Source of the DNA: Lepidodermella squamata
Lineage: Eukaryota > Animalia > Gastrotricha
Length of the DNA stretch: 64,000 nucleotides
Assembly (NCBI GenBank): GCA_047495785.1
Contig: JBLDXI010000002.1
Span: 1,054,001 to 1,118,000, forward strand
Reading direction: 5' to 3'
Positions within the stretch are counted from its first letter, which is position 1; every line of letters starts with the position of its first letter. The translations under genes were made by a program, and so were the position numbers. Shown in pieces: positions 15,095 through 61,355 of this stretch. The notes under the pieces were generated by a model. That model worked only from the letters and a program-made list of their open reading frames with translations. It was not told the origin of the DNA and did no database searches.

Positions 15095-15164
15095 TGTGGT
15101 GAATTATGTTGATATTTCGGCAGACTGAGAACGTCGATGTTAAGCGAGGGTACATAGAACGGCC

Positions 15165-26448: not shown

Positions 26449-27568
26449 TGTGGTGAATTATGTTGATATTTCGGCAGACTAAGAGCGTCGATGTTAAGCG
26501 ATGGTACATAGAACGGCCTTATATAGGCGCATCCTTATCCGAAATCGTGGTGGTGAAACATCTTACAAAAGGACGTTAATCGCCGTATAGCCTTGACGTT
26601 GTGCTCACCTTGATATTGTCATCATACGCAAAAACACGTAATAATGAGCAGCTTTTATGAAAACTTACTATGGTCACTATAAATATATCTAATATAATTC
26701 GTCATTAGTCATATTATATTATTAATCATATGCACGTTTTTTAGCCTCTTCATTCTTTGTTGTAAATTCCCCCAGGCCTTGTGAAAAAAGAGCAGCTGGA
26801 AGATCGGCGTCTTCTATGGAGAATGAAAATAAAGCGGAAAATTCAATGAAAACTGGCTCTCACAATATAATGAATCTTCGACAAAATTATTCCTGTTCTT
26901 CCTCAAAGTCACCTCCAATATATCATAGAGCTTAAAATCATAAATCTCAAATGTCTCGTTCACAGAATTAGTAAGCCTTGGGCGAAAAAGGCGAATGCCA
27001 ATTCTCCCGGTAAGGTTCATAAGTCCTTCAAAAGTCAAAATGAAGCTGTGGTATTAATGAAAAAGCAATAAAAGTTTTTTGGTAAGATTTCCTTGAGGTG
27101 GTCATCAAATTCCCGAGCTTCGTCGCTTCGTTCCGGAAGTGGCCGAAAGTGCAAATCAATTGAGCCCTGTCTCCAATTATTGTCCTTTGATTCAAACTTA
27201 GCGTATTGTTCGCAAGAGCTAGGAGCGTTTCATATTGTTTGATACAGTTAGTACTTCGTCATAATATTTAAGAATGCCACAATGCGAGCAAAATTTGTAT
27301 AATTTCCAAACCTCTGCTGATCTAGGCAAGGATAGCACAAGGCTTTTAATTTCCAACTTCATTGCGAAAAAAGTCTGTGAAACATCTGCCCTCGATTTTA
27401 CTGAATTTACTAGCGAAACTGGAAGCTGAAAATTGTAGAGAAGTGTGGACTAAATGTTACAGATATGGCAACAAGAATGCAAAGGAAATTTTCTTCGACT
27501 TTAATATTGGCAAATAGTTTGCAGACAACAATAACAAAAACAACAATTAATGGTCAAGCAATACAGTT

Positions 27569-33471: not shown

Positions 33472-36400
33472 TCAAAATCTTCCGCTAATTCGTTGCCAGT
33501 ATGAGTCAACTGAGCCGCCAGGTGGCCGTGTGTTATCCGCCGTCATTGTAGTCGTGCTTGCAGATGATTCCTCGTAAAAATAGCCAGATTGCGACATTGA
33601 GCCGGGAGTTTCTTCGAGCATTTGGGCGTTCGGCAGGGGCAGCGATGGGATGGACTGTTGTTGCGACAAATAGGAAGACAGTTGCTGCGGCAGTTGCGGG
33701 TAAGGCGCTGCTTGTTGCAGGTAGGATGACGGCGGTTGCATGAACCTCGACTGCTGCGAGTTGGTCATAGCGCACATCTAAAAATTACAGGAAAAAATTA
33801 GAAATTAACTCGATAAAATTGGTAGATTTCAAGATGAGAATTTTTAAATTTTTCGAGAAATTTATAAAATAAGAAATAAACGCAGTTCCACGGATTTGTA
33901 GATTTTGTAAATTCAGAGCCAAATTTTTTTCTAATTTCTAATTTTTTATTTAAAATTTGAGACTCCAGCACTAGATTTTCCTTAAATGTGTTTTTTCGAG
34001 TTTCATGTCATCTCTGGAATCTCATCTTTTTTAGGATCATACCTAACCGATAGAGCTTCATATTACGCGTATTTTGCGCTATCAGCGGACAATTAATGAG
34101 TTATACTTCAGCCTGCAGAGCCGATATCGATTCCAAGTATCGATTTTACAAATCAGTGATTTTTCCGATATCAGCCGTCTTTGAACCCAACATCGATAAT
34201 TTTTCTACGTAGCTTAGGGCGCCAGGGTAGCTAAAACCAAAAATCCTAGGTTCAGGGAGGGCATCAGTATCGATCCAAATAACGAAAACACCGAAATCGC
34301 AAAGGATAAAAAAATTTAGTGCCAGGACGCTCAGCTTTAGTGCTGGAACCTGGAACCTCAGTTTTAGTGGTGCAAATATTTGGACCCATTTTTCAATATT
34401 CAAAAATTTTTAAATGTCTTCAGAACATTTTTTCGAGTTCATAAATAGCTTCCCTCGAGTAGTCGAAAACGCAAAAAAATCGGAAAGATTAAATGATTAG
34501 TTTGCTAAAATTTGATGCCAGAATTTCAATTTGAGTCGTTCAAATATTTTGACCTAAAAATTAAACGATCGAGTCTCAAATTTAGGACGTGTATTCGAAA
34601 ATTCGAAAATTCGAAATAGTTATAGGAAACCTATTTCGGAAATTATTGTGCGAAATTCATAGATTTTTTACGATCTCTAATTTTGAAAATTTTTTAAATT
34701 ATTCGAGAAAATAAATTGAGGTTACCTCGATTCTTGGATCGTAAGTTCGCGTTCCACAGCAGCGAAGTACGCCGTTGTAGTTCTGATAATACCGCCCGTC
34801 ACAGCACATCTGGCCCGGCGTGTAGTCCAACAACTGGCCACCGCAGCAGAAGTGCATCTTCGTGTTGTAAACCGTCGACATACAGCACGCTAAATCACCC
34901 GGCAACATGACATTCGGCGCCGTCGACAACAACTGACCATTCACGCAAACTGGCTGCGGCTGTTGGGACGAAATCGAATTCCGCCGATTCAACATTGCAA
35001 ATAATTCCGGCGCTAATTGCTGGGGTAGGCTTTGCGGTAGAATCGGGTCGAACTGGGGAAGCTGGGAAAATGGGCCCGGGTTCGGGTTGAGTTGGGGCAT
35101 AGCTCGGCCGGGTCTCAACCCGGCAAAACCCTGGCTCGGGTTGCATTGATCGAACCGCCTATCGTAGACGTGGTCGCCGCAGCATTCGATGAAAGGATTG
35201 CCATCGGTTACCTCCCATAACGAGCCTTCGCATGAGATGAATCGAGGCATAGCCTGGGTTGTAGTCGTTGTAGTCGGGACAATGGGCGGTGGGGTTGTAA
35301 GGGCCTCGACCTCGTTCATGCGGCAAGCGTAGCGGCGCGTGTCGTAGACCTGTTTGCCGCAGCACGTGTAGAAAACAGCTTCGTCTAGCCCGATCAGTTC
35401 ATACACCTGGTTGTTGCAATTTAACCGCATTCGGCCGTTCGAGCTCGAAAACACGGCCGGGCCTACTTTCGACTCGGTTGTAGTCGTCGTAGTCGGGGTG
35501 GTTGTTGTCGGTGAGGTTGTTGTTGTGGTTGTTGTAGTGCTGGTTGTAGTTGTAGTCGGGGGTGGGGTTGTGGTTGTTGTGGTTGGGGCTTCGGTGTTGG
35601 CCGCTGCGAACATCTGAGCGTGGCGGACCATGTCGGCGACAAGGGAGGCGAGCGGGCTGTTGCTGAAAAAACCGCCTCCATTCGATGACGAAACGTTGAC
35701 TGACGAAAGTAGAGGGCCGAGTTTGGGAAGCAACTACAACAAAATATTAAAATATTAAAACAAATCTGCACATTTCTGGAAAAATTGTAGTTTCCAAGCA
35801 AGATCATGTCTACAGTTCAGTGATATTGAGAAAAAATATCTATCAATTTTTCTAAATTTAAAAAAAAAATTGCGAGCTGGTTACGTTGAAATTTTAACAA
35901 TTTGAAAATTTAATGGCTCGATAAAAATAAGAATAACGGAAAATAGTTAAATAACTTTGGAAATCAAAATCCCAAATTGAAAAATCGAATAAATTCAATA
36001 AAATGCTATCTCGGCACTCGGCAAAGTTTTCTCGAATAGCATCGTTAATGCCTCAGCCTAAAATTAAAAAATTGAAAAAAATCGTAAAATCACGTGAAAA
36101 ATCAAGTATGTCACTTGTTAATGGGATTAAAAAAGTCCGGAGAAATTCTGTCCAACCGGGTAAAATACCAAAATTTACCAAACCAGTTACCATCGGGGTT
36201 TTCCGGGTTTTCTCCGGTAAATTTTTTCCGGAAATCGCGGCTAAAAGATGGAATATTCTCTCGGTAGGTTTAATTTTAAAAAAATTAGCTGAATATCCTA
36301 CAAAAAATTGCCAAATTTAAAAATAATTGCGCAATTCTGGGACACGCTGTAGTAAGGGTTAGAAATCGGCGTATACAATTTGGAAAAAATTGATTACCTT

Positions 36401-39520: not shown

Positions 39521-42500
39521 ATGGGCTGCAGGCGAGCTAAGAAAGAGGAACCTTGCCTCGAAGATTATGGTAATTTCAATTTTTTATAAAAACTTTCGTA
39601 ATTTCCTGTTACCTAATTCGCAGTTCCGTTCCACTGGACTCATCTGGTATTTGTGGTCACCCTGACACTTTTATTACAGTGCTTGATTCGGCTTCAAACC
39701 TTTTGGACACCCTCTGTACCTGATGCTATTGATTTAGGGATCCACCCGGGCGATTTAAATCGAACCATCTTAGACACGGACCGATTTGTCACAGCCCGAG
39801 CTAGGAAGCATCTCGAACATATCGACACATTCGGAATTCGGCCAAGTGGAACAAAATCGGATGAAAAAATGATTAATTACTTGTTCGAACAAATTCAGGA
39901 GTTGAAGAGCTTGATGGGAGCTGATTCGAAGTTCGAGTTCAAATTCGAAGCTAGCGTTAACAATAAGAGGATGCTGGAGCAAAGCAATTTTCAAAGTGCT
40001 TTGTTTTTCAATATTACGAATGTCTTAGTGAGGTTGGACCCGATTCAGGGTGACCAAAGAGGCGATGCGTTGCTGATCAATGGTCACTTTGACACGGCAG
40101 AAGGGGTAAATAATTTTAAATTTTTAACAAATAAATTAGGAATTTGAAAATTTATATTTTTTGAAAATTTCAAAAGATTTCAAATTTTTTTATAAATTTT
40201 AAAAAAATTTCAAAAATTTCAAAAAATTTCAGACAATTTTAAATTGGAATTTAAAAATTTAGAAATCTAAAGAACTTCTTAAGAAATATTTTTTTCAGAC
40301 TGCCGGCGCCAGTGATAATTCATTGAGGTGCGCTATCATGTTGGAAATGATTCGAGCAATAATTTCCTCGAAAAATCCACTCAAACAACCGATAATTTTT
40401 CTATTCAACGGCGCCGAAGAAGCCGGACATGGCGGGGTCAAGGTATTCGCCGGCCATGCATGGGCGAAAGACGTGAAATACTTTATTAACCTCGACTCAG
40501 CTGGGCCAGGTCGCGATTTGTTGTTCCAAGTCGAAAATTCGTTCCTACTAAAATCGTACGCATCGGCCGCGAAATATCCAATGGCTAGCGTTTTTATGCA
40601 AGAATTTTTTCAACATTTCCTAATGTTTTTCGGAACTGATTATTCGGTGCTAAGCAAGGAAACCAACGCAACAGGCATGGATTTTGTGGCCTTGGATAAT
40701 AGTTATATACTTCACACCCGCTACGATAAACCTGACCTCATTTTGGACGGCGATATTGAACGAATTGGTGTGAACAATTTGGAATTAATTCGCAAAATTT
40801 CCAATAATTCAGCCAATTTTACGGACGCTGAGCGACGCGAAAAAATGGTTTATTTCGATGTATTTTCACTTTTCGTAATTTTCTACCGGTTCAACTGGAT
40901 TGGCGTGGCGTTGAATTGCGTCGCGATTGGTGTCACCCTGCTACGCTTGATATGGCGCAGCGTCGCCGGCGGTTGCGAGTACGTCAAAATGCTAGTTGTC
41001 ACATTTTTTATGACAATTTTGGCGGTTATAATCGCGCTGGTTTTTCTCGCTGGAATTCTTTACCTCGTCACTCTACTGGAATTGGAATATTGCTGGTATT
41101 CTCGGCAATGGCTGTTAATTTTTATTTACGTTCTGCCAGCAATTTCAGCATTAATTTCAATTCATGCGATCAATTCACGGCTAATAATACCCCGATTAGC
41201 CTTGGTGGCGAATGATAATCGAAGTTCGAAACTCGGCTATGAAAGTTCGATAGATTCGGCCCTTCTAATAGCTTCAGCAATCCTGGGCGCGATGACCTAT
41301 TTCGAATTCGCTAGCTCTTACCTGGTTTTCACCTGGATTTTCTGGGTCGCGGTTTCAACTTCAATTTTGGACCTTGCCGCTCCGGTTTCGAATATTGAAA
41401 GTCCAGCTTGTTTGCTGATTCGGCACCTTTCAATCACCCTAGTGCCATCGATCTTCTATCTATATTGGATTAATATTATTTACGATAGCATTCATTTTAT
41501 CGCTGGCGAGGTGGCGATTGCATTTTTCATCATCGCAATTATCTTTGTTCTTTTCTTATTTCACGTGAGTCAATTTGAACGTTTTGAAATTGTAAGATTT
41601 TTAAGGAGGATTTTCTTGGAAAAATATTTTGATTATTTTCTAGGTGCGACACCCCAGAAAAAAAATTTCTGGGCAATTTCTAAAAAAAAATGCAAAAATA
41701 AAAAATTTGATCACTTTGATTTAAATTTAATTTTAATTTTAATTTTATAATTTTATATCCAAAAAGGATAATTGTCTTAATGAAAGAAATTCGTTTTCGC
41801 CAATGTCCATGCTGATTTGTCGTTTTGAAGGTTTTTCGTAGGGCGAAATTTGATTTTTAATTTTTTAGTTTTTTGCGTTATTTCTATTTAATTTTAATTA
41901 TTTAATATACTTATATAATTTTTTTATTACCAGGCTCCCGTCGTCTATCTTAGTGCTGGCGACGTCCTATTTCCGGTAATTATTTCATTCCTACTCGCAA
42001 TCACCGCCTTCGTCCTCGTAATATTCACACCAATCGGACAACCCTTCGCCGTCAACGCCGAATCAATCAAAGGCGTTCGACTCGGCATGTCGGACACGCA
42101 ATTAATCGCATATAGAACTGGTTCAAATTCGGCGAATATCAACGCAGAGATAAGCTTTCAACCTCGTTTCATGGGGCTGCACCTAAAAAGCTTTAACCTA
42201 CTGCAAGAATCCGCCTCAGATGGCCTGAATTCATACCTGAAAAGCGCAAGAAATTCTTGCAACGGAACGGCCATTTGCGAAATTATACCGCCAAACTTTT
42301 CTCGATGGATCGAATTGAACGACACGGCTGAATTAAAATCTTTAAATTGGCCAAAGATTTCTGTTAACAAATTAATGGAAAAGCATGAAGGCGAATATTT
42401 CCTTCAATTTAAAATCGCCTGCAATAATGCTTATCAATGCAGTTTTTTTATTATCCCACCGGTTTCCGTGGAAATTACACGCTGGCATTTCGGCTTCGAA

Positions 42501-42845
42501 ATCATCGAGCTGGAAACATTTCCGAAAAAGCAAATGATGCAGCCGAAGTTGATCGGTCATCGTCGTTACTACGAAATGCAGCTGAATAATCTTGGCAATC
42601 ACAAGGACATTTACGCGACAATTTTCGTCAAAAGCTATCGCATGGATGGCAGTATGTTGGATTTTGAAATAGCTGTCGCTAGCAAGTTGGTCGAAGATGG
42701 CGTCGAGATGAGTAATATGCCGGGCCAGTTGCGAGATTTTGTGGCCACCCTGCCGGATTGGCACCATACAGTGCCAAGTTTTGCCATGTACACTACCGAG
42801 CGGTTTACATATGAACCTAATTCAAATTCTGGAACTTTCAGTTGA
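39521..42845 (+). CDS. ERMP1: ER metallopeptidase 1-like (peptidase M28, polytopic membrane protein)
   Basis: INGHFDT, GASDN, FLFNGAEEAG, FINLDSAG, TDYSV, YILHTRYD, followed by many TM helices; about 4 exons. Confidence 0.85.
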
Positions 42846-43315: not shown

Positions 43316-45041
43316 CTAAGAAGCAGAAATTAACAGAAAAATTATTACAATAAAATTGTCACCACTCGATTGATATGCATGTGACAAGTAGCCAGATTCC
43401 ATTCGAAACGACGTCATTTCGTAGTTCGAAAACACGCATCTATCCGTGATGTTGTGAAGAAACCGCCGAATAACCGCTCGGCTGCCTTTCCGCTTTGACG
43501 CGTGACCAGCATGCATTAAGGCGGCTGTTTCGCCAAAGGAAGACCGGCTAATCAGCAAGTGATCGATCTCCGGAGACGCTAAAATCGACCAATCTACAAA
43601 AGTCCGTAACGTAGTCTTAGTGTCAAATCCGGTTGGTGCTTTGAATGACCGATCGATATGCGTGATTGGCGCAATCGAATCAGCAGTTCGAATTGTCAAT
43701 GAAATCGATTTCTCCTTCGCGTAATTTTCCAATGAGCTTGCGAAGCTTTTCATCGAATCTTCCAAGTCAGTTGTTATGAAGACTACAATTTTTCGATATT
43801 TATTTTTCCGGCAAATTTCGTCCAGCTCTTCGACGAAACAATCAATTTGACCCGGGTGAACTCGCGACCAATATTCACCCCATTTCCATTGGCCAGCCGA
43901 TCGAATTTGAACGGCAAATCTTGCGTCGAAATTTGAAGTTCGAAATTCGTTTTCGAAGGGCGCGACTGAATTTTCGAGCAAAGCAGTCCGCCTTGATAGT
44001 AGAATTTTCAAGGCGATAATGGTTAGTTGGGATGGCGTAAGCCCGAACAGGTTATAGTATTCCGCCATGGGTTTGTAATAAGGATTTTTCAGGAAAATTT
44101 CCAAGGGAATCAAAGAGTTGATTTCGAGGGACAGGTGATCGTGTTCAGAATAAATTTCTCTTGTATGTTTGCTCGAATTGAACAAGTCGATAATGACTGA
44201 AAATATTCGAAATTAAAATTTTAAATTTTAAATTAAACAAATTGAAAATGATTTAAATTAAATTTTTAAATTAAACTAAATTTATAAATAAAAAATGTAA
44301 ATTTCAGAATTTAATTTAAGAAATCAAAAATCCTTACGATCTTCCATGTCGACAAAGCGAAAATTGCACGTCGCTGGTTTTGGCGGCGCAATTTCGGAAA
44401 ATATCATTTTTCTCGAAAAAAATTGCGCATCGAAATAATGTTCCAATTTAGACGGATACGCCCAGTCGACTGAAAACACGCCATTTGTCAGTAAGGCGAT
44501 GTAGAAAACAGCCGCCAGTCCACGCAGCCGATCGCCCAAACCACCGCATTGATAACCGCTATTTCCGGCGCAGCGGTATTCCAAAATTATTGGCTCGCAT
44601 TTCAACCCGTATTTCGTATGTTTTTTCGCGCCTAATGTTGCCTCTAATAATTTATCATATTTCGCTTTAATAGAAGCGACAATGAAGTCTAAATCATCAT
44701 TTTTCGATTGAGGTGATGATTTGAGGTCCTTCGGAGGTAACGGCGATCCATCTAAGCAAAATGATTCGACTTGCAGCCGCTTTTCTCGATCGACATTGTC
44801 TTTTGGCAGATCGTCGGTGAAAACACGTCTCTCAGGCCTTTTTTCGCATATTTGCGGCTCCGAATGGCTAAAACCACTCCAGCGCTGTTCGATTGCGTAA
44901 AATGCATAAATACCCACCTTAAATAATAAGAATATATAAAGCGTATCAATTTATTTTAATTATTCGACTCACCGCAGTAAGGAGAATTCGAAATAAATAT
45001 TTCAAGCGAAAATATTTCACTGCTAATTCATGCAGGTACAT
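43316..45041 (-). CDS. Fucosyltransferase-like glycosyltransferase A (GT11/GT23/GT37 fold family); 5' exon uncertain
   Basis: CGGLGDRLRG, FAVQIR, VFITTD, DWSIL, SRSSFGETAA; hydrophobic C-terminus. Confidence 0.7.
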
Positions 45042-45380: not shown

Positions 45381-46914
45381 TTAATTAGTCCAACAAAATT
45401 GATCATTTCGTTTTATATTGATCGCTCCACGGCTTTGTTTCAAGTGATAGCCAATCGCGCTGCTTTGATGCATGAAACACGTGTGGCCTTCATTAGCGAT
45501 TGATTTCGCGTAGAATTTAGCCGCAACATTATGGCTGCAACTCGCGAAGTTAGATAACAGTGATCCTTCTCGAACTTCTCCGTCTTGCTCCTCCTCATCT
45601 TCTGCGTTCTCCTCCTCCTCCTCGTTCTGGCTTCGAAACGGGTTACAGCCGGGTTGAAGACTGCCGATGTCGTTGATGAAGATATCCGCATGGCCGATTT
45701 TCTCGCCATGCCCGATGCATTTTGTCGAGTGGTAGACGTCGACAAGTTCAGCGTCACTTTCGTCAAGGCGCCGATCGATAGGCCGGCCGCGAAACAGGGG
45801 CCCGGCAGGGTCGAGGCCGCTGATTCTGTCGCACCGGATGCGATGCTTGTTAAGCAGATTTTGGCATAAAAACGCGCAGACTTGAGCGCCAAGTGAAAAG
45901 CCGATGCAATGTAGCTGGATGCTACCGCTAAATCCGGCCAATTTCGACAGCTCTTGGATGAAATCAGCCGCTGCCGCTCCAACAACCTGGACATTTCTAG
46001 CAGGACGGCCGTAATAGAACGCTGAGGCTGTTTTCATGGTGGCTCCATTTTGCCAATCCAGGAAAAGCACATTTTTCTAAAAAACAAAATAAAAAACTCC
46101 ACCTTAATAAATTATAGTTTACTTACCTGTTTATTTATCAAATTAGTGATTATAGGGGTGCTCCATGACGCTGTATTGCATAAAGATCCTTTCCAGCCAT
46201 GCGTGACGATAGTAATGGCCCTGGAGAGGAAAACTTGCCGAGCGAACATGTGCTTTTCTCGTTCATTTGTTGATGTTACTTTCAAGCTGCGTGATTTCAA
46301 AAATGAAGTCGCACCTATATTGAATAACCATTGAAACCTTTAAAAACTCGACAGAATGAGACTTACATTGGTCTGAGGTGCTATTGCTTGGGATATTTTG
46401 GCCACCCGCGAAGAAAAACATCGTTGGATCGATCGATTTTAGAGGATCGGCTTTATCAGTTGAAGGCACAATGTCAAAAGCACAGAAACTTTTCCGAGGT
46501 ATAACTCCTTCATTCTCCTCATCTTCATCGTGGGCTGTAGGCCTTGAAAAATTCAAAAAATTCAAACAAATATTAACAAATTATCGATCATTTACTCATT
46601 GTCCGCTTCGTCGTTGTTGGAAATTTCATCAGCGGGACCAGTTTCTTCGTTATGGTTATCATTGTCTTTTACGGCGTAATCCGTAGTTTCGGTTCGAGCA
46701 TCGAGAACTTCTACGGGTCTTCAGATATTACAATTATAACAATGAAAAAATAAAATGAGAGTGCTCTTAACCCATGGTCCGCTTGATCGGCTTCGTCGGT
46801 GGGACCAGCTTCGCTCTGGCCATCATTCTCCTCAGCGGCGTAATCCTTAGTTTCAGCTCGAGCATACAGAACAACTACGCCGATCAAGACGGTAAGCGAG
46901 ATCGTCAACTTCAT
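45381..46914 (-). CDS. Pancreatic-lipase/PLA1-like secreted lipase 1 (acidic pro-region and acidic lid)
   Basis: Signal MKLTISLTVLIGVVVL; HGW, HCIGFSLGAQ, LDPAGP, CSH; no PLAT domain. Confidence 0.85.
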
Positions 46915-47028
46915 TTCAGCTTCAAAAAGTGTGCTAGTGATTCTCTTACACCCAGCTAGCCTGTAACACACGTTTCCCATCTGACACCTCCCAGGTGTTG
47001 AAAAATGTTAGCTTTATTGACAACAATA

Positions 47029-48240
47029 TCAAGGGGTTTCCTTGTACCAACATTCTTCGCCAATGTCAATATTGATTACACCCAATTTCGCCGTCAAACC
47101 ATAACCAATTGGTTCGTTATCCCAACGGTAGCATTCGGCCAATTCCTGCCCACGAATAATCGACTTGGCGTAGAACCTAACTGCAACTTGATGGCTACAG
47201 GACTCTGCCTCACTTATAAACAAATTCCTCGCTTCCCTCTCGTTCATATTCCGAGATCTTCGAATCATCTTCATGGCTCTCCTTGCGGCTGAGTAGCAAC
47301 CGGGTTGAATTGAAAGAATGTCGTTGATGAAGACGTCAGTATGGCCGAGAGGTTCTCGTTGCCCCATGCAGGTTGTAGTATGATAGACATCAACCAGATT
47401 CGCGTCGCTTTTGTCAACATTTTGCTGGTATCCATTTTTCCGAAACATCGGACCAGCCGGGTCGATTGCGGACAATCGCGCGCATGTCACGCCAACATGT
47501 TTGCGAAGAGTCTCACACATCTGCGAGCAGACTTGGGCGCCTAGGGAGAATCCTATGCAGTGGATGCGGTTGTCTAAGAGTGATTGGGAAAGCAAAGCCA
47601 TTTGAACTAGGCTTCCAGCCATTGCTGTGCCGAGGAATTTAGAGTTCACAGCTGCCTGAGGGTACTCGTCAAAGCCTTGTTTCTTCGCACCCTCTCTCCA
47701 GTCCACAAAGAGAACATCTCTCTGGGTTCAAAATCACAAATTTCGAATCCAATGAACTAAAACAATAGGCTATCGTACATTTTGTTGTAAAATACCGAGA
47801 ACCATTGGGTTGATCCATTTTTTCGCGATGCAAATCCCACTGTTGAAGCCATGCGTGGCTACGGTAATCAATCCGTCGCCTTCAAAAACACGGCTAGCTA
47901 TTCTTAATGCTTCATCTTCATCGAAAAATTTGACAGCCTGGTGGTTTACGATCTCTGTTATACCTGCAAATCAAGGAATCGTAGTTTGTTGGATTTCTTT
48001 AATTTCTTGGATCTTACATTTCGAGGTGTCTATCTTTAGGTCAGGTTCCTGCTCATTCGCTTTGAAATAGTGCCATGTGGGATCGATTTTTTCTAGGCTA
48101 AGCGGCTTTCGAAAGAAACCTGAAATTTCAGCAAGATCTACTGGACAGACTTTGCTTATCTGCAACTCTGACAGAGATCTGCTGGGTAATATCAGAATGA
48201 AAAAGAGGCTGCAAAAAGGAATACTTGGTTTCATAGTCAT
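47029..48240 (-). CDS. Lipase 2
   Basis: Signal peptide; HGF, GFSLGAQ, IDPAGP, CSH. Confidence 0.85.
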
Positions 48241-48727
48241 ATACGTAAAAATAGACAAGGTTTCTCTTAGCAGACAGATAAAATCTGAATAGCGAACGCT
48301 GTAGAGGCATCTGTTGCTGAATTTTAAATTCTCTAATTGAAAAACAAATAAATTCCCGCCAGTGTAGTTGGTGCAGCTCTGAGAAAAGTAGGAATGACAA
48401 CTTGGGAATTATTTTCGTTTCTATGGAACGATTGGTCACAAAACCTGTGGCACTCAGGTACTTTTGCCAAAGTTCACTTGCACCAATAGTTCCTAGCCAA
48501 TGGGTATTCCATGGACCATAAAAAGAGAAAAATTCCGGTATCAAGATCCATAGATCTTGCTAAGAATTCCTCTGGCGGAATTTCCTCGCTTCCAATCTTG
48601 GAAAATACTGCTCGCGGATGATTAGTCACGCGCTAATAATTCAAGTTTATTCCTACCAGACGAGACATGGGTTTTGCCGAGCTTATACGTTCTTTATTTC
48701 GTGTCAAATGACTAACAAAATCGCAAA

Positions 48728-49935
48728 TTAGTAGATGACTTCAGGGCTTGTAATCCAGCAATTTAAGCCGATATTCAACTGAACTGTTCCGGTTACGTCG
48801 TTGGACAGAAAGTAGCCAACATTTCGCTCATGATCCACAGAGAAGCATTCAGCAGAGTTTCTACCCCGACTTATGGATGTGACGAAAAATCTGACCGCTA
48901 CTTCGTGGCTACAACCGAAATTCACAGTTCCGCCGACAGACCTTTCAGACGATAAATCGGCTTCAGTTATTAGACAGCCTGGTTGCCGCTGGTAGAGATT
49001 ATTAATGTAAACATCAACATGCCCCAGTCGCTCCACCTGACCGATGCAGTAAGTTGAATGGTAGACATCGACAACCTTTGCGTCACTCGGGTCAACATTG
49101 TCAGAAGGCCCTGTTTGCCGGAACAATGGACCCGCTGGGTCGAGGGCTGAGAACCTCCCGCAGGTGATACCGTAAAGGTCCCTGAGGGTTTTACACATGT
49201 TCGAGCAAGCGTGTGCGCCCAATGAGAAACCTATGCAGTGAATTGCTCGAAGTCTTGTTCTTGGGACATTCGCTAGGTCAGCCATGTTCACCAAATGAAT
49301 GGCCATAGCTTTGCCAACAATTCTGGAATTTTTAGCTGGCTTTGGATAATCGACAATGCCGCTAGCTTTTGCTCCATTACTCCAGTCCAAAAATAGGACA
49401 TTTTCCTGGGAAATTAACGGTTTTTAAGGTTGATCAAGGACAAAATAAAACCTTCTCGCGCAACAAATCTCTGATAAGAGGAGTGCTCCATTCTTTCGTA
49501 TCGCAGATGCCGCCCATGAATCCATGGGTCGAAATTATGATTCGACCTCTCCCCAACAAAATCTGAGATCCAAACCTAGCACTTTCAACCAGATCAAACA
49601 TGCCTGCAGTGCGGTAGTTTGCAACATCCGTCACGCCTAGAAGGAAAGGAGGAAGATTCGATTTAAAGACTCGATAAATCAATGGGCCTGCATTTTTCAG
49701 TTGATTGGAGTTGGCGAAAAAGGCGACTTCTTTGGTCTCTTGCCTTGAATAAATACCAAGTTGGGTTTATATCTTCGATGATGTCTGGTTTATAGAGGCC
49801 TGCGGTTTTCTCGATTCCATCGAGAAGGCAAGTTGATGCTTCGATATCATTGATACTTGTATCGAACCGAAATCTACGCCGTTGGCAAGAAACAAGGGGT
49901 GTAATGCCTAAAAGAAGCAAAACTTTCCACAGCAT
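48728..49935 (-). CDS. Lipase 3
   Basis: MLWKVLLLLG; HGF, GFSLGAH, LDPAGP, CSH. Confidence 0.85.
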
Positions 49936-50042
49936 TGCTCAGATTATCTATCCTAGACTTTTCGAGCATTTTGAAGGGCGGAGAAAATAAAACATCTGCG
50001 AAAAATATTTTCCTGTAATTTATTCAATAAGTGTATTCCTTT

Positions 50043-51249
50043 TCAGTACCAACAGTTGCTATCAGTGTTGACAGTGATACTCCCCAGCTTGGCTTTCAGA
50101 TGATAACCGATTTTCTCGTTATTATGCGAGAAGCAATGCGGCATTTGATCGCTCCAAGCCACTGATTTAGCGAAGAATTTGATGCCAGCCTCGTGGCTGC
50201 AGGACAAGAAGCTGGAAAGGTCTTCCGCCGACCGTTTTACACGCTGCCTCGGGAAACGCGCTACTTCAAGCCCACCCGAGGAACGCCTCACCGCACAGCC
50301 AGGTTGTGAAACATAGAGGCTGTTCAAGAAAATATCAGTATGTCCTAATGCCTCAGTCTGACTAAGACACATTGTAGTATGGTAGACATCGACGAGGTTG
50401 GCATCACTCTTATCTATATTACCCCTGACTCCGTTATTTCGGAACAAAGGCCCGGCTGGTTCTATAGCCGACAGCCTCGCACAAATCACGTTGTGTCTTT
50501 CCCGGATGATCTTACACATTGCCGAGCAGACTTGAGCGCCCAGCGAAAATCCAATGCAATGAATTTGTCCGTTTAAATTCTGCTTTTCCACCCTGGCTCG
50601 TTCAGCATTTTGGACGAGAAAGTCGGCCATCGCAGTTCCGACAACCTTCGTGTTTTTCGCTGGCTTGATGTAGCTGTTCCAGCTGAACTGCGAACCTCTA
50701 CCCCAGTCCAGAAACATCACATTTTTCTAGACAGAAAACTTTGGATAAAGCTCTGGATCTAGGAGCTTTCTCCAACCTTCTGCTGGAGAATGTTGAGAAT
50801 TAGGGGAGTACTCCAAGCTTTTGTATTGCAGAGGTCCCCTTGAAACCCGTGAGTAGAAACCACGAATCCATCAGGAGCCGTGAAAATTGGCCTGAACGCC
50901 GATAACAACGTTTCGTGCTGGTAAGCTCCTGTAAATTCGAATGACGTGTAATTCGCCATTTCCTTAGCACCTGTGGAAAACTTAAGGTGATTCTAGACAT
51001 GATTTTCAAGGCTTTACACAAAACTGCCCCGGCAGTGAAGTTGAGCGATGATTCTTTTTGCCCTGCGGCATTGAAGATGTACCAAGTAGGGTTGATTTCT
51101 AGGATGTTATCTAAGCTAATGGGAATCAGATGCAAAATACCATCGGATATTTCACACAGCTCAGACGCCTGCCGTTTTGCTCGATGTAACGGCCTGCATG
51201 AAGCATGAAGAGCTGCGATAACCAAGAAAATTAAAGCCAATAAATGCAT
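50043..51249 (-). CDS. Lipase 4
   Basis: MHLLALIFLV..RAKR; HGF, GFSLGAQ, IEPAGP, CSH. Confidence 0.85.
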
Positions 51250-51365
51250 AGTTGAATTTGATGAGCTAGATTCGAGTTCTGAGAGAAAGAGATTAAATTT
51301 CAGTCGAACATCTGCTCGAAACATTATTGCATCAATTTTATTCATAGCGAATAAGCTCGAAGTGG

Positions 51366-52659
51366 TTAAAACCAACATTCCGAGCCTATTTTCAGGTCGA
51401 ATCTTCCTCTTTTGTACTGGTCACTGTGATAACCGAAGTATACCGTAGTATACGGGAGTTTGCTTGAAAAGCACTCCGGTAATATTTGCGTTGACATTAA
51501 AGACTTGGTGTAGTACCGCATCGCTGCTTCATGGCTGCACCCGAGGAAACTAATCACAGCCTCGTTTGCATTCTTTCTTTTCTCCAACTCGTGTTCGTCC
51601 ATAGGAGGAGGATTAGGTGGCATTATCTCGTCCATTTCCAAGCCCCGCTTTGTCATAGGGATGCAACCGGGTTGATGCTTGAAGACGTTGTTTATGAAAA
51701 CATCGAGATGACCAATCGGTTCCTCTTGGCCCAAGCAACTAGTCGAGTGGTAAACATCGACAAAGGTAGCATCACTTTTGTCCACGTTTCCCTCAGCGCC
51801 TTTGTTTCGGAACAATGGACCTCCAGGTTCAACGGCAGACAGCCTTGCGCAAGTTACTCCATGCTTCGATTTCATCTGTTTGCAAAGAGCCGAGCAAACC
51901 TGAGCCCCCAATGAGAAGCCAATGCAGTGAATTCTGTTATCAAGTAAGCGATTCTTTGCTTTGAAGCGCTTTGCAAACTTGACCAAAGCATCAGCAGTTT
52001 CAGTTCCGACAACCTTCGTATTTTTCGACGGCTTTATGTAAACGTTCCAACTGGCGAAAGATCCGCCACCCCAATCAAGAAACATCACGTTTTTCTATAC
52101 CGCATTGGGAGAAAATCGATTAGTTAGTTTCTAATGAAATCAAAATGTCTTGCCTGCATCATGAGGAAACTGCCGATAAGAGGCGTGCTCCATTTAGTTG
52201 TGCTGCACAGAGCAGTTTGGAATCCGTGAACAACAATGTGCAAAGGTCCACCGGAAATTTGCGAAGTGCGTGCGAAGTAACGCTGAAATACCCCGTTTAA
52301 TTTTCCTAAAGGTTTGCCATTAAATGGCTGGATAGCTTGGTTTCTGAAGACGACCTTTGCACCTGTGAGATAATTTGCTTGAACGTGTTTTCGATTCAGC
52401 AAATAGTAAACTTGCATTTTTGATCCTTCCTTAGGTCGACTAATATCGGCTTTCTTATTTGATCTCTGTGCAAGAAGAAGTAAAAGGTTGGGTTTATCTC
52501 AGCTATAGTAGCAGCTCCGCCGGGGACTAATCGCAGCAAGCCTTCGCCAATTCCGCACATGAAATCGTCCCCTCGCTTAACGGAAGATGAAGCTGCTTCA
52601 ACAGTCCTTGCAGCATCTCCAACAGCTAAAGAAGAAAGTAGCGCGTAAATTAGCAGCAT
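51366..52659 (-). CDS. Lipase 5
   Basis: MLLIYALLS..VKR; HGF, GFSLGAQ, VEPGGP, CSH. Confidence 0.85.
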
Positions 52660-52869
52660 TTATAATTGCTAAGTTCGGAACTGAGAAATACGGATTCCAA
52701 GCTAACATCTGTATCTAGTATTCATAGGATCAGACCATGGCTCAATTCCCGTCTTTAACGACCACCTTAATTCAGGGTTAATGTGAGTCTCGAAAAGCTG
52801 TTACTTATGCTGTAAGTTGATTTGCTCCTCTGAATTATAACTCGGGGTGGATAATAGGCTGTGAACAAT

Positions 52870-53150
52870 AACTGACCAATCATGAGAAACCAGATTCGGC
52901 AAGCCCTTAGCAATCTTTATTAAAACCAGAAATACTGGCCATTTTAAGCTCAACTTTTCCCAGTGCCTTCTTTGCCATGAAGTTCAGCATATTTTGAACG
53001 AGAAAGTCGGTCATTGCAGTTCCGACAACCTTTTCGCTGGCTTGACGTATCTATTCCAGCTGAATTTTGAATCTAGGATGTCTCCAACCTCCTGATGGAG
53101 GAAGTTGAGAATTAGGGGAGTACTTCAAACTTTCGAATTACAGAGGTTCA
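52870..53150 (-). pseudogene. Heavily deleted lipase relic
   Basis: Pieces match the lipase 6 3' end/UTR (53199-53290) and the lipase 4 body (50600-50840). Confidence 0.75.
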
Positions 53151-53235
53151 AGGCGGAGAGTATATTCGGAGTATATAATAGACTATGATAAATGAGACCT
53201 GACCAGTCATGAGAAACCAGATTCAGCAATTTTTA

Positions 53236-54416
53236 TTAAAACCAGCAATTCTGGCCAATTGAAAGCTCAACTTTTCCCAACGCCTTCTTGTTGTGAAAGC
53301 CTACATATCGCCTTCGTCTCTGAAGCCTCCTGCTGTGTTCAGAGTAGCACTTAGGCTGCAAACGAGTAAACAACAGCGATTTCGTGTAATATCGAATAGC
53401 AGCTTCATGGCTGCATGCTAGGAAGCTCCCAAAAGGTTCAATACTCAGCCGTTTCTCGACGCCATCCTCCACCCGCTTCGTAAGAGGTGCACAACCAGGT
53501 TGCCGCTTGTAAATATCGTTGATGAAAACATCAGTATGCCCGATAGATTCAACCTGGCCGTGACAACTAGTCGTATGGTAAACATCCACATATTTCGCAT
53601 CGCTTCTGTCCACATTGCCAGAGGGCCCTTGCTTTCGAAACAGCGGCCCGGCAGGGTCGACTGCCGACAATCGACCACAAGTTATTCCATACTTTGATTT
53701 CAGCCGTTTGCAGAGGGCAGAGCAAACTTGAGCTCCCAGTGAGAATCCAATACAGTGGATTCTGCTTTCGAGATATCGTCGTGTCGCGAGTCGAACCAAA
53801 ATATCAGCTGTTTCAGTTCCGAGGACTTTTGTATTCCTCGCCGGCTTGGCGTAAACGTTCAAGCTAGCGAAGGATCCGCCGCCCCAATCGAGAAACATCA
53901 CATTTTTCTGGAACAGAGAAGTAGCTTCTATAACTGTGAAGGCAATTGTATTACCTTCAAAAGTAGGAAACTTCCGATTAAAGGCGTACTCCATTTCGTG
54001 GTGCTACACATTGCAGTTTGGAAGCCGTGAACAACAATGTAAAGCGGACCGGGTGAACTGAAGAAAGGGTTTTTACCGTCGGCCTTAAAACGACCGTTCC
54101 ACGGCTGAAGGGGCCGGTTTTTGAAAACTTCCTTAGCACCTGAAAAATCGAGCTCAAACTGTCTTCCGACGCGGATGATTTTGGATAACTTGCATTTTTG
54201 GTTGCTTCTGAAGTCAATGTTGAATGGTTTCTGCTCTCTATGCAGGAAGAAGTAGAAGGTCGGATTGATTTCTGTGATGCTATTTGCCCCACCAGGCATC
54301 GATTTCCATACCCAATCTCCGAGTTTACACATAATTTCATCACTTCTTTTGGATAGAGATACGTTCTGGCCATGAATTGCAACAAAAATACAAGCTCCCA
54401 ACAATGGGAATAGCAT
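53236..54416 (-). CDS. Lipase 6
   Basis: MLFPLLGAC..SKR; HGF, GFSLGAQ, VDPAGP, CSH. Confidence 0.85.
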
Positions 54417-54499
54417 TTTCTTGAAATAGGATGATCAAAAAGTAGGCCGTAAGCGCCATTACAACATATGCTATGGATCAAGGATTAAATAATAGACTT

Positions 54500-55708
54500 T
54501 TATTGAAACCAACAGTTATTTCTCGTTTTCACGTAAACCGAGCCAACTTTATCTTTAAGGTGATAGCCAATTGTTACATTTCGAGTAGATTTGAAGCATT
54601 CCGGCAGTTCGTCTCTCCATGCAATAGACTTCGCGTAAAATTTCGCCGCAGCTTCGTGGCTACAACCAAGAAAGTTCGTTATCGCCTCGGTCGAGCGCTT
54701 CGATCTTGTTCTGCGACCTTTACCCGATCCGGTCATAGGTGAACAACCAGGTTGAGCCGACTTCAAATCATTGATGTAAACATCCGTATGGCCAAGAGCT
54801 GCTGATTGGCTCGTGCAATACGTTGTATGGTAGACATCGACCAAGTTCGCGTCGCTTTTGTCAACATTCCCTCTCGGTCCTTTGTCGCGAAATAACGGCC
54901 CGGCTGGTTCGATGGCGGATAGCCTCGAGCAAACAACACCGTACCGTTCTTTGATGATTTTACACATCACTGAACAGATGTGAGCGCCTAGGGAGAAGCC
55001 GATGCAGTGAATTCGATTGTTGAGATTCGATTTTTCAACCCCAACTCTTGCAGCCATTTGAACGATAGATTCGGCCATAGCAGTTCCGACTACTCTAGTA
55101 TTTCTGGCTGGTTTGACGTAACCATTCCAGTTAAAATGAGACCCGCCACTCCAGTCCAAAAACATAACGTTTGTCTGGAAAAAAAATCGCAGTATAAAAT
55201 GATTCGAAATTAAGGAGGATTTTTTCAAACCTTTTCCTTTAGCAAACTAAGGATAAGGAGAGGACTCCAAACTCGAGTGGTGCAAAGGGCTGTTTGAAAT
55301 CCATGAGTTATGAGGGCAATCTTACTGTTTCCAGCGAAAATTGGCTTGAGAGTTGCGGCGAGTTTATCTTTTTCGTAATCTCCAGAAAATTGGAAAGACG
55401 CGTATTTCACCAATTCTGTTGCACCTGAATTATAAAAATTAGTTGAACATTTTTATAGATTTTTAAGATTTTGTACAAGGAGGTTTTGGCGGTATTTTGA
55501 GTGAAATTGGGCCTTGATCTTGAGCGTTGAATATGTACCAAATTGGATTGATGGACAAAATGCTGTCGACCCCGCCGGGTAGCAAATTTATCAGCGTTTC
55601 GCCAAAATCGCAAGCGTCAAAGCCTCGCTTTCCCCGTCGCAATAATTCAGCATGAAGGAAATTGGAAAAAAATAACAAGATAAAGATAACCAAGGTTTTA
55701 GCAACCAT
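54500..55708 (-). CDS. Lipase 7
   Basis: MVAKTLVIFILLFF..RGKR; HGF, GFSLGAH, IEPAGP, CSH. Confidence 0.85.
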
Positions 55709-56040: not shown

Positions 56041-57789
56041 TTAAAAATTCGTAATTAAAATTGATACAACAGCGAGAAGAATTGGGATGAAAATATTTTT
56101 TTGATCAAAAATTGGCGCAGATCCGCTTTCCATGCGAAACGATTTAACGTCGTAGTCTTCGAACTGGCAGTGATCAGAAACGCTGTGTTGAAGCCGACGA
56201 GCCGGGAATAGCCGCGACGGCTGATGAACAGCTGCAGCTGTTTCGCCAAAAGACGATCGGCTGATAATTAGGTGATCGATTTCCGGCGCGGATAGCACCA
56301 CCCAATCGACAAATGTTCGCAATGCTGCGACTTTCTGATCCAGGCCAGCATGCGCAGTTTTTGCAAAATCTGTTCGGTCTATATGAGTTATTTCAGCCAC
56401 ACCATCAGCCGTAACAATTTCAATTTTGATTGATTGGCTCTCGGAAATTTTCGCTAGTGATTTACGAAGATCGAGTAAAGCTTCGTTTGAATCGGCTGTG
56501 ATGAAAACTAGAATTTTCTTGTAATTTTTCGACTTGGCAATCCTAGCCAACTCTTCGCTAAAACATGAAATTTGCGAATAGCCGACTCGATTGAACTCGC
56601 CCCATTTTGAGGAGCCAAGTCGAACCTGCAGGCCGAAACGAGCGTCGTAATCTTTTTGCTGCAATAGCCCTAGAAATGGATCCACTGCACTTTTCAAGAA
56701 TTCGGTTGGGTTTGAAAGCATGATTTTGAAAGCAGTTGCCAGTAATTGCGTTCGAGACAGCTTTTCCAGGCCGTAGTATTGAACCATTGGCTGGTAGAGG
56801 GGATTTTCGAGGAAAATGTCGATGGCCACTAATGAGTTGAGCTCGAAGGAAATTAGGTCATTCCAGGCCAATGTCTCCCTCATTACAGACGTTGTGTTAA
56901 ACATGCTAATGATGCCTGCAAAAGGTCAAAAAAGTAGGTCAACACGCACTTGTCGAGACCAGCGAAATAAAACTATTGATTAGCTATTTAAATAAATTGA
57001 AATATTTAAAAAAATATTTAAATCCTTTTGAATTTGTTGAATTCTAATTTATTTATTAATTTATTTACTTATTTATTAATAATTAATTATGATTAGCTTA
57101 CGGCTTTCTGAATCAATGAATCGGTAGGTTGACTCGGCAAAATTAGGCCTGGTGAATTTTTTGATAATTTCTTCTCTCGAGTAGAACGGCGGCTCGAAAA
57201 ATTCATCCAACCGCGTAGGATAGGCCCAGTTAAACGAGACGACACTATTCGTCAATAAAGCCATGTAAAACACAGCGGCTAGCCCTCGAAATCGGTCGCC
57301 TAAACCGCCGCATCGAAAACCTCGCTTCTCCGCGCATTTATATTCGAGAATCAAAGGTTGGCACGATGGCGATTTTTCGGCGGCCATTGTTGATTCCAGC
57401 AATTTTTCGTATTTACCCCTGATTGATTCGGCGATTAAATCGATATTGGTCGTTTCAGGTAGTGGCGAGAAGTTTTTCGGAGGTAGAGGTGAGCCGTCGA
57501 GGCAAAATTGTTCTGCTTCCAGTCGCTTTTCCTGCTCTTCTCGGGCTAATTCGTCGGTGAATGATCGAGGCATGGCTCGATAATCGCCGATTAGCTTGAA
57601 GCCGGAGGTAGGAGATAAAAGATCTTTCCGAGAAAATAGGGTCGAGTAAAGAAAAATTGTGATAGCGATCTAAATAAACTCATCATTAATTGGCTGCTGA
57701 ACTTTTAAGAAGAGCCGTAAACTTACACAAACTGCCAAGTAGCAATAAAATTTTCGGTTACGCAGATCAAATAATTTGACAATCAGCAT
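56041..57789 (-). CDS. Fucosyltransferase-like glycosyltransferase B
   Basis: N-terminal TM (YCYLAVC/IAITIFLY), CGGLGDRFRG, FGLQVR, VFITAD, SRSSFGETAA; hydrophobic C-terminus; paralog of 43316-45041. Confidence 0.72.
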
Positions 57790-58451: not shown

Positions 58452-59772
58452 ATGTCCTCAAATTTTCAGAGAATTATCGGTGAAATTTCCACCAATATTC
58501 AAACATTCTCGTTCAACAGTAAGTCGACTCAATAGCTTGATTCAGTTTTTATATTAAATTTTATAGCTCAGAAAATAAATTCACATGCCACGAAAATTGG
58601 TACACCTCAGGAGACAGACCAGATTTTGGCCGAGGTCAGTCGCCTGACGCAAGTCACTGAGGAATTGGCACTTCGAATCGGTGATCAGTTCAAATCGCTG
58701 AACCAAGCCACAACGGCTTTGCCACCCTCCGAACAACGGGAACGGCGCATTCAGGCCAATCGTCTGCGAGATCAATTCATGGCTGTTTTGTCGCAATTTC
58801 AAAAGCAGCAGCGTGAAGTTGTCGAGAGGCAGAAGCACTCTATTCAAAAAGCTAGGCTCAGCTCGACCTCAAGCGCCATAGCCCCGCCTCCCTCGTACAA
58901 ATCGGGCGGTGCTGGGTATAACGATGACGAGGGTCGGATTGATTTTTATCAAAGTGAGGATAATAACAATCAAGCCAGCAAGTATGAAACGGCGATTGGT
59001 TATGCGGCAATTCAGGACCGTGAAAGGGAGTTGAAGCGACTCGAGGGCGATATTGTCAACGTTAATCAAGTCTTCAAAGATATGGCCGCACTGGTTTATG
59101 AGCAAAATACTAAAATAGGTTGGAACTAAATTTCAAAAATTTAAATTAAAAATTAATTTAAAAATTATTTTAATTTTATTTCAGATTTTTTTGGTTGTAC
59201 GACATTTGCGCAAAAGAAACTGAGCAAACCGACAACTGAGCACGACAATTGATCAAACGACAACTGAGCAAATTTTAAATTAAATAATTATATATTTATT
59301 TTCAAAATTAAAAACGACATTTGACATTTGATCAAATCAAGTGTTATTAAATAATTTTTTTTGAATTTTTTCTCAGTTTTCGTTTGATCAAATGTCGTTT
59401 TTAATTTTGAAAATAAATATCTAATTATTTAATTTAAAATTCGCTCAGTTGTCGTTTGATCAATTGTCGTTTGCGCAAATGTCGGCATACGATTTTTTTT
59501 ATTTTTTTTCAAATTCAATTCATTTTTTATTTTCAAATATTTTTCAAATATTTAATCTGAATTAAATTGTGAATTTTGAACCTATAGATATTATCGAGGA
59601 TCAAATCGTGAAAGCTGATAATTACGTTGAAGACGGGCGAGCGCAGTTGCTTCACGCCGAGAAGCTGAAAAATTCATCGCGCAAGAAAAAACTATGCTGC
59701 TGTATCATCTTACTAGTAATTTTGATCATAATCGGCCTCATCTTAGGCCTCTACTTTGGTCTCAAGTCTTGA
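58452..59772 (+). CDS. STX7/STX12: Endosomal syntaxin (STX7/STX12-like)
   Basis: Habc region IGTPQET; SNARE motif IQDRERELKRLEGDIVNVNQVFKDMAALVYEQ..IDIIE; CCC followed by C-terminal TM. Confidence 0.88.
59193..59490. mobile_element. Foldback MITE in syntaxin intron (9-bp TSD, MULE-like)
   Basis: Near-palindromic arms with CGACATTTG/CGACAACTGAGC motifs; GATTTTTTT on both sides. Confidence 0.8.
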
Positions 59773-59991
59773 ACGAGCGTTGCTATCGTAATTATTCATG
59801 CTCGAACTATTGAAAATGAGTGGAATAAATTACTCTGAAAACACCTTCCGGTCATGTTTTTGTTCACAGGGCAAAAGTTTAATGGCGAAATATCCGAGTT
59901 CGACCATGCTTCAAATTACAGGTGCATTTTCAGTTCATTTGTAGAACCTTTTGATTTTTGAGAATTTTGAGAGAATTTCATTGTTTGCAAA

Positions 59992-61355
59992 ATGAAGCAA
60001 ATAATTATTCTCCTAACCCTATTTTCATTCTCAAATGAATGCAGCCCAGCTAGAAGGGCTGATCCTGATATAGAATCAGCTCGTAAAGCTCTCAAATTCA
60101 TCTACGTATCAAACCGAATTAGAGTGGATTCAAGGCGGAAGTTATCAGACTCTGCCGTTGCATTTCTCGATTCCTGCGGCCAGCCACCTGTAACAATCGG
60201 CGGATCTGTTTGCGAGCTACAGCAAAAAATCTTCCAAAATGGGACAAAAATCGTGACGGCCCTGTATTGCTGCGAAGCGGCTGATGGCGGTCGGGAGGAT
60301 TTTGAATCTAGAACTTGTATCGATTCAAAATGGCCGGAACCTCCTGTATGTCCTAGAAAGGACAATTCAACCAGCCCATGCCCGGCTGAAGTTCGGGAGG
60401 ACATCGGCCCATTTAGCAAAACTTTCGGCTTGGATTACTGCGGAAAATCTCGCGATGAAAGTCGCATGATGTGCGGGGAAAATTCGCAAAAATTAGTCAG
60501 AATTCTGCCTGTCCCTATCGATGCGGTTTTACAGCTTCACAATTGCTGGCGGAAAAACGTGAAGCCAGCAGCGAGAATTGAATTAATTGACCTAGTTTGG
60601 GACAACGAACTAGCCGCACTTGCCGAGCGAAGAGCCGTCCAATGTTTGGATTTTAAGGAGGATGATATTGCTGAAAATCACACGCCGAGGCAATTACGGG
60701 TCATTCCAGGCCGCAATTGGCGTTCGATCGGGGAAAATTTGTGTTGGAGCGGCTATGACACAACTCTGACCCCACGAACCTGGTCTGATTGCATCAACGC
60801 ATGGGCTTGGGAGTGGAATTATTGGGAATATGGGATCGGTGCTAAACCTGCGGGTTCGATGATTGGTCACTACACTCAAATGGTGTGGCAAAATACAACA
60901 AATATTGGGTAAATTATGTAATTAAAATGATTGATTATTATCCTGCATCTCATAAAAAAATGAGATTATTATTATAGGTAGCCAAAACTCATTATAAGTA
61001 CTGCTGCACACACACACTCCATTATTGCCCTGAAAAAACAATGAAGTCATGTTTATCTTACCTATTGTCAAGACCCGCGATAGCTCAGCTGGTAGAGCGG
61101 AGGACTGTAGATGAAAAGCAGCAATCCTTAGGTCGGTGGTTCAAGTCCGCCTCGCGGGAATATCTTTTTATCCTTTTTTTATTTTTTTAATTGTCCTCAA
61201 ATTTTTAATTACTATTTTTTCTCAGATGCGCAATGTCCCAATGCCGAGATTCGAACATGGATTTCACAATGGTTTGCCTTTATGGACCTGGAGGTAACAT
61301 CGGCTTGTCGGAAAAAGAAGCTTTCAGTAGACCTTACGAAGCTGTTGATCCTTGA
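59992..61355 (+). CDS. Secreted CAP/SCP (CRISP/antigen 5-like) protein with Cys-rich N-terminal extension
   Basis: Signal peptide; LQLHNCWR, LVWDNELA, IGENL, GHYTQMVW; intron 60909-61225 then GCAMSQC...VCLYGPGGN. Confidence 0.88.
61074..61159 (+). tRNA. tRNA-Tyr: tRNA-Tyr(GUA) with 13-nt intron
   Basis: Acceptor stem CCCGCGA/TCGCGGG, A box TAGCTCAGCTGG, anticodon GTA at 61107-61109, intron 61111-61123, B box GGTTCAAGTCC, T-run terminator downstream. Confidence 0.95.

Follow-up and report, generated by a model that had tools for sequence, protein, structure and literature searches.

Can the lid of a lipase be cut out by proprotein convertases in the manner of the insulin C-peptide, leaving a permanently open phospholipase? 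The question is raised by seven genes in a 64,000-nucleotide stretch of the genome of the gastrotrich Lepidodermella squamata (contig JBLDXI010000002.1, positions 1,054,001 to 1,118,000; hereafter the window, to which all coordinates refer), in whose products a first-pass annotation had noticed basic residues between the two cysteines that bracket the lid. All seven, named L1 to L7, are intact lipase genes of the pancreatic family (Pfam PF00151), secreted-type and without a PLAT domain, and all lie on the minus strand between 45381 and 55708. The earlier interpretation is partly supported. As judged from the sequences, the basic sites in the lids are supported as selected convertase-type sites, by their enrichment, their Arg-last order, silent change in L7, a predicted disordered loop and recurrence in distant lipases. 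The reading favoured here, to which we give a probability of about 0.5, is that the lids of L2 and L4-L7 would be cut by convertases to yield a disulfide-held two-chain enzyme, more open and probably similar to a phospholipase A1 (PLA1). The array is composed as follows.

45381-46914, minus strand: lipase L1, 441 amino acids in 5 exons; acidic lid of 35 residues at 45540-45644
45894-45896, 45810-45812 and 45531-45533, minus strand: catalytic Ser, Asp and His codons of L1, respectively
47029-48234, minus strand: lipase L2, 364 amino acids in 3 exons; lid of 32 residues at 47200-47295
48728-49935, minus strand: lipase L3, 368 amino acids; lid of 20 residues at 48914-48973
50043-51249, minus strand: lipase L4, 369 amino acids; lid of 31 residues at 50202-50294
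51366-52659, minus strand: lipase L5, 393 amino acids; lid of 41 residues at 51540-51662
52842-53150, minus strand: degenerate partial lipase copy between L5 and L6, resembling exons 2-3 of L4 and the 3' end of L6
53236-54416, minus strand: lipase L6, 359 amino acids; lid of 25 residues at 53416-53490
54500-55708, minus strand: lipase L7, 366 amino acids; lid of 26 residues at 54665-54742
54695-54715, minus strand: polybasic site RRTRSKR↓S in the lid of L7 (the arrow marks the presumed cut), a single cluster covering GRR and RSKR

The last exon of each gene matches PF00151 (76.7-108.2 bits, with a cut-off of 27) and the spliced models are open throughout (359-441 amino acids, introns of 46-60 nucleotides), which bears out the description of the locus as a seven-lipase array. 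Each protein retains the nucleophile Ser in GFSLG, the catalytic His and 12 conserved cysteines, and has a hydrophobic N-terminal stretch (best nine-residue hydropathy 2.4-3.7) with no later membrane segment. As catalytic acid L1, L2, L3 and L6 have Asp, while Glu takes its place in L4, L5 and L7, a point missed at first; the Glu codons lie at 50460-50462 (L4), 51828-51830 (L5) and 54908-54910 (L7), and this residue is shared by only 2 of the 243 homologue domains surveyed. Both lid cysteines are invariant across 125 aligned sequences and homologous to Cys243 and Cys266 of LPL (PMC11764694), and their pairing in a disulfide is inferred from that homology. In all seven proteins a stop follows 52-61 residues beyond the second lid Cys and PLAT is therefore absent, as had been stated. 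The β9 loop measures 10 residues throughout, the same as in hornet PLA1 and to be compared with 17 in rat PLRP2, whereas the TxCxG ending that had been given for it is replaced by TxCxS in L4 and L7. The classical colipase-dependent pancreatic lipases are recognized by a PLAT domain together with a long β9, and L1-L7 have neither. A short lid and a short β9 mark PLA1s (PMC9031518). With a PLA1 lid of about 12 residues or fewer, the lids of the array are too long as encoded, and only if they were cut would about 12-20 residues stay. As for the short β9 that had been offered as a PLA1 mark, it does equal that of the hornet enzyme but is no special trait, since 108 of 212 measured domains in an invertebrate-rich homologue set have 11 residues or fewer.

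The lids themselves, taken between QPGC and CSH, were measured at 35, 32, 20, 31, 41, 25 and 26 residues in L1 to L7, in keeping with their description as hypervariable loops of about 20-41 residues, and every motif that had been named in them for L2, L4, L5, L6 and L7 is present. The lid of L4 contains VRR (50283-50288), RFPR and RVKR↓S (50232-50243), that of L5 has TKR (51645-51650) separated by an acidic and proline-containing spacer from EKRK (51573-51581), and that of L6 reads TKR (53473-53478), VEDGVE and KR (53449-53454), while L2 has ARR and IRRSR plus REAR. R-x-K-R is thus found in the lids of L4 and L7 and dibasic sites in those of L2, L5 and L6. The acidic lid of L1, which has one Arg towards either end, and that of L3, with one Arg only, have no dibasic site, and an Arg lies 9-12 residues upstream of the second lid Cys in all seven. 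Paired sites had been claimed for five paralogues, and here the picture has to be redrawn: true pairs are those of L4, L5 and L6, with L2 a weaker candidate. The two sites of L7 are one run, RRTRSKR, and this lid would therefore be nicked, not excised. Excision of a C-peptide-like spacer thus fits L4, L5, L6 and perhaps L2, but neither L7 nor L1 and L3 with their single Arg. The KR that had been noticed behind the putative signal peptide of L4-L7 is there as well (RAKR at 51172-51183 in L4, KR in L5 and L6, RRGKR in L7) and L3 additionally has RRRFR; these convertase-type N-terminal motifs in L3-L7 suggest passage through a convertase-bearing compartment.

Basic pairs are concentrated in the lids beyond what chance would give: the 210 residues of the lids hold 10 KR or RR, the remaining 2159 residues of the mature proteins 11 (binomial p 4e-6). 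Two dibasic sites that lie apart occur in five of the seven lids, whereas shuffling of each lid leads to an expectation of 0.69, and none of 20000 shuffles reached five. The order of residues is also uneven, with Arg last in 10/11 basic pairs inside the lids versus 11/22 elsewhere (Fisher p 0.027), and KK is absent from all seven lids. Both KR are retained in L5 and in L6, with a spacer between them of 21 residues in the former and 6 in the latter, and the distal KR is retained in all of L4-L7, whose cores are 56-70% identical (clade support 96.7/99). These observations bear on a first alternative, in which the basic residues stay uncut and serve as a cationic patch for binding to glycans or anionic membranes. 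It accounts well for lids that are 23-25% Lys plus Arg (L2, L4 and L7) and for the strongly basic character of L5-L7 (net charge +14 to +26), and selection for Arg would likewise leave only silent change at the codons described next. It sits poorly, however, with the acidic spacers of L5 and L6 and the acidic lid of L1, with the Arg-last order and lack of KK, with the same type of motif behind the putative signal peptide and with a basic loop outside the lid of L6 that tolerates the loss of Arg (see below), and we regard it as unlikely.

Evidence of a different kind came from run X1, in which the L7 lid also occurs in another version, at a depth of 42 beside 60, which fits a second haplotype because the two depths together approximate that of undivided stretches. 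Ten differences are listed between the two versions of this lid. The four Arg codons of RRTRSKR account for five of them, every one silent, while the other five are spread over four non-basic codons, among them the two spacer positions of the motif, and each alters the encoded amino acid. Were change uniform, these Arg codons would all still encode Arg with a probability of 0.003, and a Fisher test of 4/0 against 0/4 gives p 0.029; the silent-only pattern points to selection on the motif. As a control, in a basic loop of L6 that lies outside the lid, the two Arg codons that differ have become Lys and Gly; the distal KR in the lid of L6 shows no difference among those listed between the haplotypes. 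A further alternative regards the lids as hypervariable loops, rich in Arg and neutral, whose motifs were inherited once and are meaningless. The lids are indeed barely alignable, as variable in length as described and strongly different between haplotypes, the motif is missing from 2/7 genes and the paralogues form one clade. This explanation nevertheless has to contend with the four silent Arg codons of L7 next to residue-changing neighbours, with the retention of both KR around spacers as different as 6 and 21 residues and with the enrichment of R-x-K/R-R in lids of separate lineages (see below), which together make it less likely still. As a separate observation, the second haplotype of L6 (53231-53560) differs at 36/333 bases, with residue-changing about equal to silent differences among the listed codons, which is unusually fast change.

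The sites of L4 fall, by prediction, in an exposed and flexible loop. In an AlphaFold model of the last exon of L4 (exon 3 only, 125-row alignment), the mean predicted local distance difference test score (pLDDT) is 89.9 but drops to 46 and 54 in the blocks 151-160 and 161-170, and helix 167-191, which bears the second lid Cys and the catalytic His, begins directly after RVKR↓S. The basic sites of L4 are thus predicted to sit in a disordered stretch, with the last 9-12 lid residues helical and continuous with the His helix. Among the matches listed at E<0.001 by Foldseek for this model are LPL, pancreatic lipases, PLRPs and hornet PLA1, and a model of a lipase from the annelid Owenia (P0106) has the same layout around RAKR↓Q.

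Such sites recur far outside the array. Word-index searches and a HMMER scan of 1.84 billion representatives returned P0001, sister to the array, as the sole close relative, and in a metagenome scan 6 loci came up, all of them distant and outside the array clade. In distant members of the family, R-x-K/R-R was found in 11 of 339 unique lids (drawn from 420 proteins, leaving out 16 near-identical cluster members and domains without recognizable lid or G-x-S-x-G) versus 1.7 expected from shuffles, and 8 times in 77,663 other residues. The first 243 lids contributed 8 of these and the 96 later ones, which lie outside the seed clade and come from a search seeded with motif-bearing proteins, a further 3 (p 0.002). 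The carriers are P0106 and P0343 of Owenia, P0163 of Adineta, P0172 of Rotaria and P0007, P0102, P0104, P0224, P0230, P0406 and P0431, while P0340 and P0279 were recognized by eye and stand outside the count. They are about 30-40% identical and scattered in lid-free trees with weak deep nodes, and mostly carry one site, often near the first lid Cys, not a pair. The general pattern would thus be a single cut, a nick, with paired sites special to this array. The two bdelloid rotifer proteins, P0163 and P0172, have lids of 67 residues in which RVKR or RIKR comes after an acidic stretch, an arrangement kept between Adineta and Rotaria. A clade uniting the array with P0102, P0104, P0224 and P0230 (FastTree 0.887) was not firmly recovered by IQ-TREE, so that shared ancestry of these lid sites is not firmly supported.

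These elements outline a model in which a convertase of the furin or proprotein convertase (PC) type would remove a short N-terminal pro-peptide (at RAKR, RGKR or KR) and cut the lid in the same secretory compartment. A single cut would nick the lid (L7), and a double cut would free the spacer (L4, L5, L6, perhaps L2). Of the two computed products, the larger, at about 28-30 kDa, would contain the Ser and the Asp or Glu, and the smaller, at about 7-8 kDa, the catalytic His together with three Cys; the lid disulfide and the fold would hold the two chains together. The hydrophobic helix ahead of the second Cys would be kept and the polar part of the lid lost, and the leftover arms (about 12-20 residues) would no longer cap the site, which might lower interfacial activation and favour phospholipids, while an uncut lid would damp activity during synthesis. 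L1 and L3, with only single Arg residues at the same position, may escape cleavage or be processed by a different protease. Cleavage of the lid appears likely for L4 and L7 taken by themselves; that cleavage also activates is a proposition for and against which the odds are about even.

The most serious competitor concerns the outcome of the cut. If cleavage by convertases or gut proteases inactivated the enzyme or only retuned its substrate range, the lid would be a timer or specificity switch rather than the switch of a zymogen. All the evidence for selected sites applies equally to this possibility, and the cut would fall only 11-14 residues ahead of the catalytic His. A closed lid accompanies interfacial activation and the lid is essential for substrate specificity (PMC8287333), and endothelial lipase (EL) is inactivated by convertase cleavage, with an analogous site in LPL (PMC9656567). 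An enzyme that convertases inactivated during its secretion would, however, be lost before it could act, the hydrophobic helix that leads to the second Cys would be kept and is predicted to be ordered, the naturally short-lidded members of the family are active PLA1s (PMC8287333, PMC9031518) and P0001 is simply short-lidded. Overall, an inactivating or retuning cut seems unlikely.

Cleavage with opening of the enzyme has several further points to answer for, besides the fact that the known convertase cleavage in this family, that of EL, inactivates and lies outside the lid. The probabilities given for enrichment within the array are optimistic because L1-L7 are paralogues of one clade (92.5/98) and hence not independent. 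The allelic test concerns one gene, with 40 of 74 differences listed, and the contig of the second haplotype could be a close paralogue, while X1 may itself be the source of the window. Two genes, L1 and L3, have no dibasic lid site and processing is therefore not required by the entire array; P0001 has a lid of 10 residues, likewise without such a site, and the word-index and HMMER searches described above found no orthologue of the array genes. In the distant lids, plain KR or RR is not enriched (25 vs 21 in shuffles of 243 lids) and shows no Arg-last bias (p 0.44), and excision cannot be general because only 2/243 carry two separated sites. L6 has seven dibasic sites outside its lid, including RRRR↓Y in a C-terminal loop of the would-be light chain, and the residues following the cut would be Val and Leu at the lid sites of L6 and Lys at the distal site of L5. 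Val, Leu and Lys are disfavoured at this position under convertase rules. Clean processing of L5 and L6 is less likely because of these bulky or basic residues and of the basic run in the light chain of L6.

Proteolysis of lids has been spoken of before. Trypsin is said to nick the lid of LPL and horse PLRP2 is reportedly cut in its lid with activity retained, literature confirmation having been found for neither, and we know of no convertase motif encoded in horse PLRP2. The latter (PDB 1w52), a family member that was isolated proteolysed, differs from the array by its PLAT domain. EL and LPL share family and fold with the array (they are among its best Foldseek and phmmer matches) and are cut by furin-type convertases at RNKR or RAKR (PMC9656567, PMC11764694, PMC10160976). 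The site in LPL, at Arg297 of the mature protein (324 of the precursor), nevertheless lies outside the Cys243-Cys266 lid, and a C-terminal domain is present. In Legionella PlaA and PlaC, cleavage within a disulfide-loop lid raises activity (bioRxiv 2023.03.24.534060), and the likeness is close in that the disulfide-closed loop by the catalytic His covers the site and a cut inside it activates. These are, however, GDSL enzymes and not of the G-x-S-x-G/PF00151 type, and the protease that cuts them is a secreted bacterial metalloprotease acting at E/L instead of basic sites; the array, with its GFSLG nucleophile and PF00151 match, has no GDSL motif and resembles them only in how it would work. 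Hornet venom PLA1 (PDB 4qnn) is a PF00151 protein with G-x-S-L-G, a pair of lid cysteines ahead of the His, no C-terminal domain and the same β9 length, but its very short lid is encoded as such, in contrast to the lids of the array with their basic cleavage-type sites. A venom role for the array was rejected, nothing in the data pointing that way. The carrier lipases of Owenia, Adineta, Rotaria and others share with the array R-x-K/R-R inside the Cys-Cys lid. In titles and abstract openings, with subscription papers mostly uncovered, no report of a convertase site or of cleavage in a PF00151 lid was found.

It may be, though we put this forward tentatively and with less confidence than the reading for the array itself, that lid cutting is an unrecognized maturation switch of invertebrate pancreatic-family lipases that evolved repeatedly (in the array, rotifers, an annelid and other lineages, or about 3% of sampled lids), leaving the His on a small chain, with L4-L6 excising a C-peptide-like spacer. 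The lid of the PF00151 family is understood to open by a reversible change of shape or to have been shortened in the gene, as in PLA1s. If the proposal is true, activity and specificity could be set in a third manner, irreversibly, by convertase sites encoded in the lid, and the encoded length of the lid would mislead predictions of lipase versus phospholipase for these proteins.

The gene models themselves call for some comment. Contigs of run X2, presumed to be RNA, are joined across introns 2 and 3 of L1, approximately across its intron 4, and across intron 2 of L2; all other junctions, including L1 intron 1, are predicted. This run holds spliced L1 and L2, with spliced contigs that span much of L1, covers L3 and L5 thinly and gives no own cover of L4, L6 and L7, for which it is uninformative, and a further run, X3, yielded nothing; loose ends of the X2 contigs suggest further lipase copies elsewhere in the genome. 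The degenerate copy between L5 and L6 is interrupted by stops and frameshifts (blastn/tblastn and frame reading). GC donors, as inferred from the reading frames, occur in 4/16 modelled introns (at 49691, 52415, 52153 and 54193), a high share, and the GC-AG introns include L3 intron 1 and both introns of L5. Besides its acidic lid, L1 contains a long pro-region (46490-46860) that is likewise acidic, comprises about 85 residues encoded by two similar exons and has PRK at its end.

Other genes recognized in the window are listed below.

34699-35733: galaxin-repeat mucin-like protein
39617-42845: ERMP1-type M28 peptidase
58536-59772: syntaxin-like gene
59971-60912: CAP-domain protein

The array is bordered on either side by one of two similar genes of two exons each (43316-44950 and 56041-57669), with a weak fucosyltransferase-like match (PF03254, E 0.005, below the cut-off). 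Further away, duplicated genes for dynamin-family GTPases (12799-15103 and 22982-26457) lie in repeated, transposon-rich blocks, with a Mutator-like element (MULE) and reverse transcriptase nearby.

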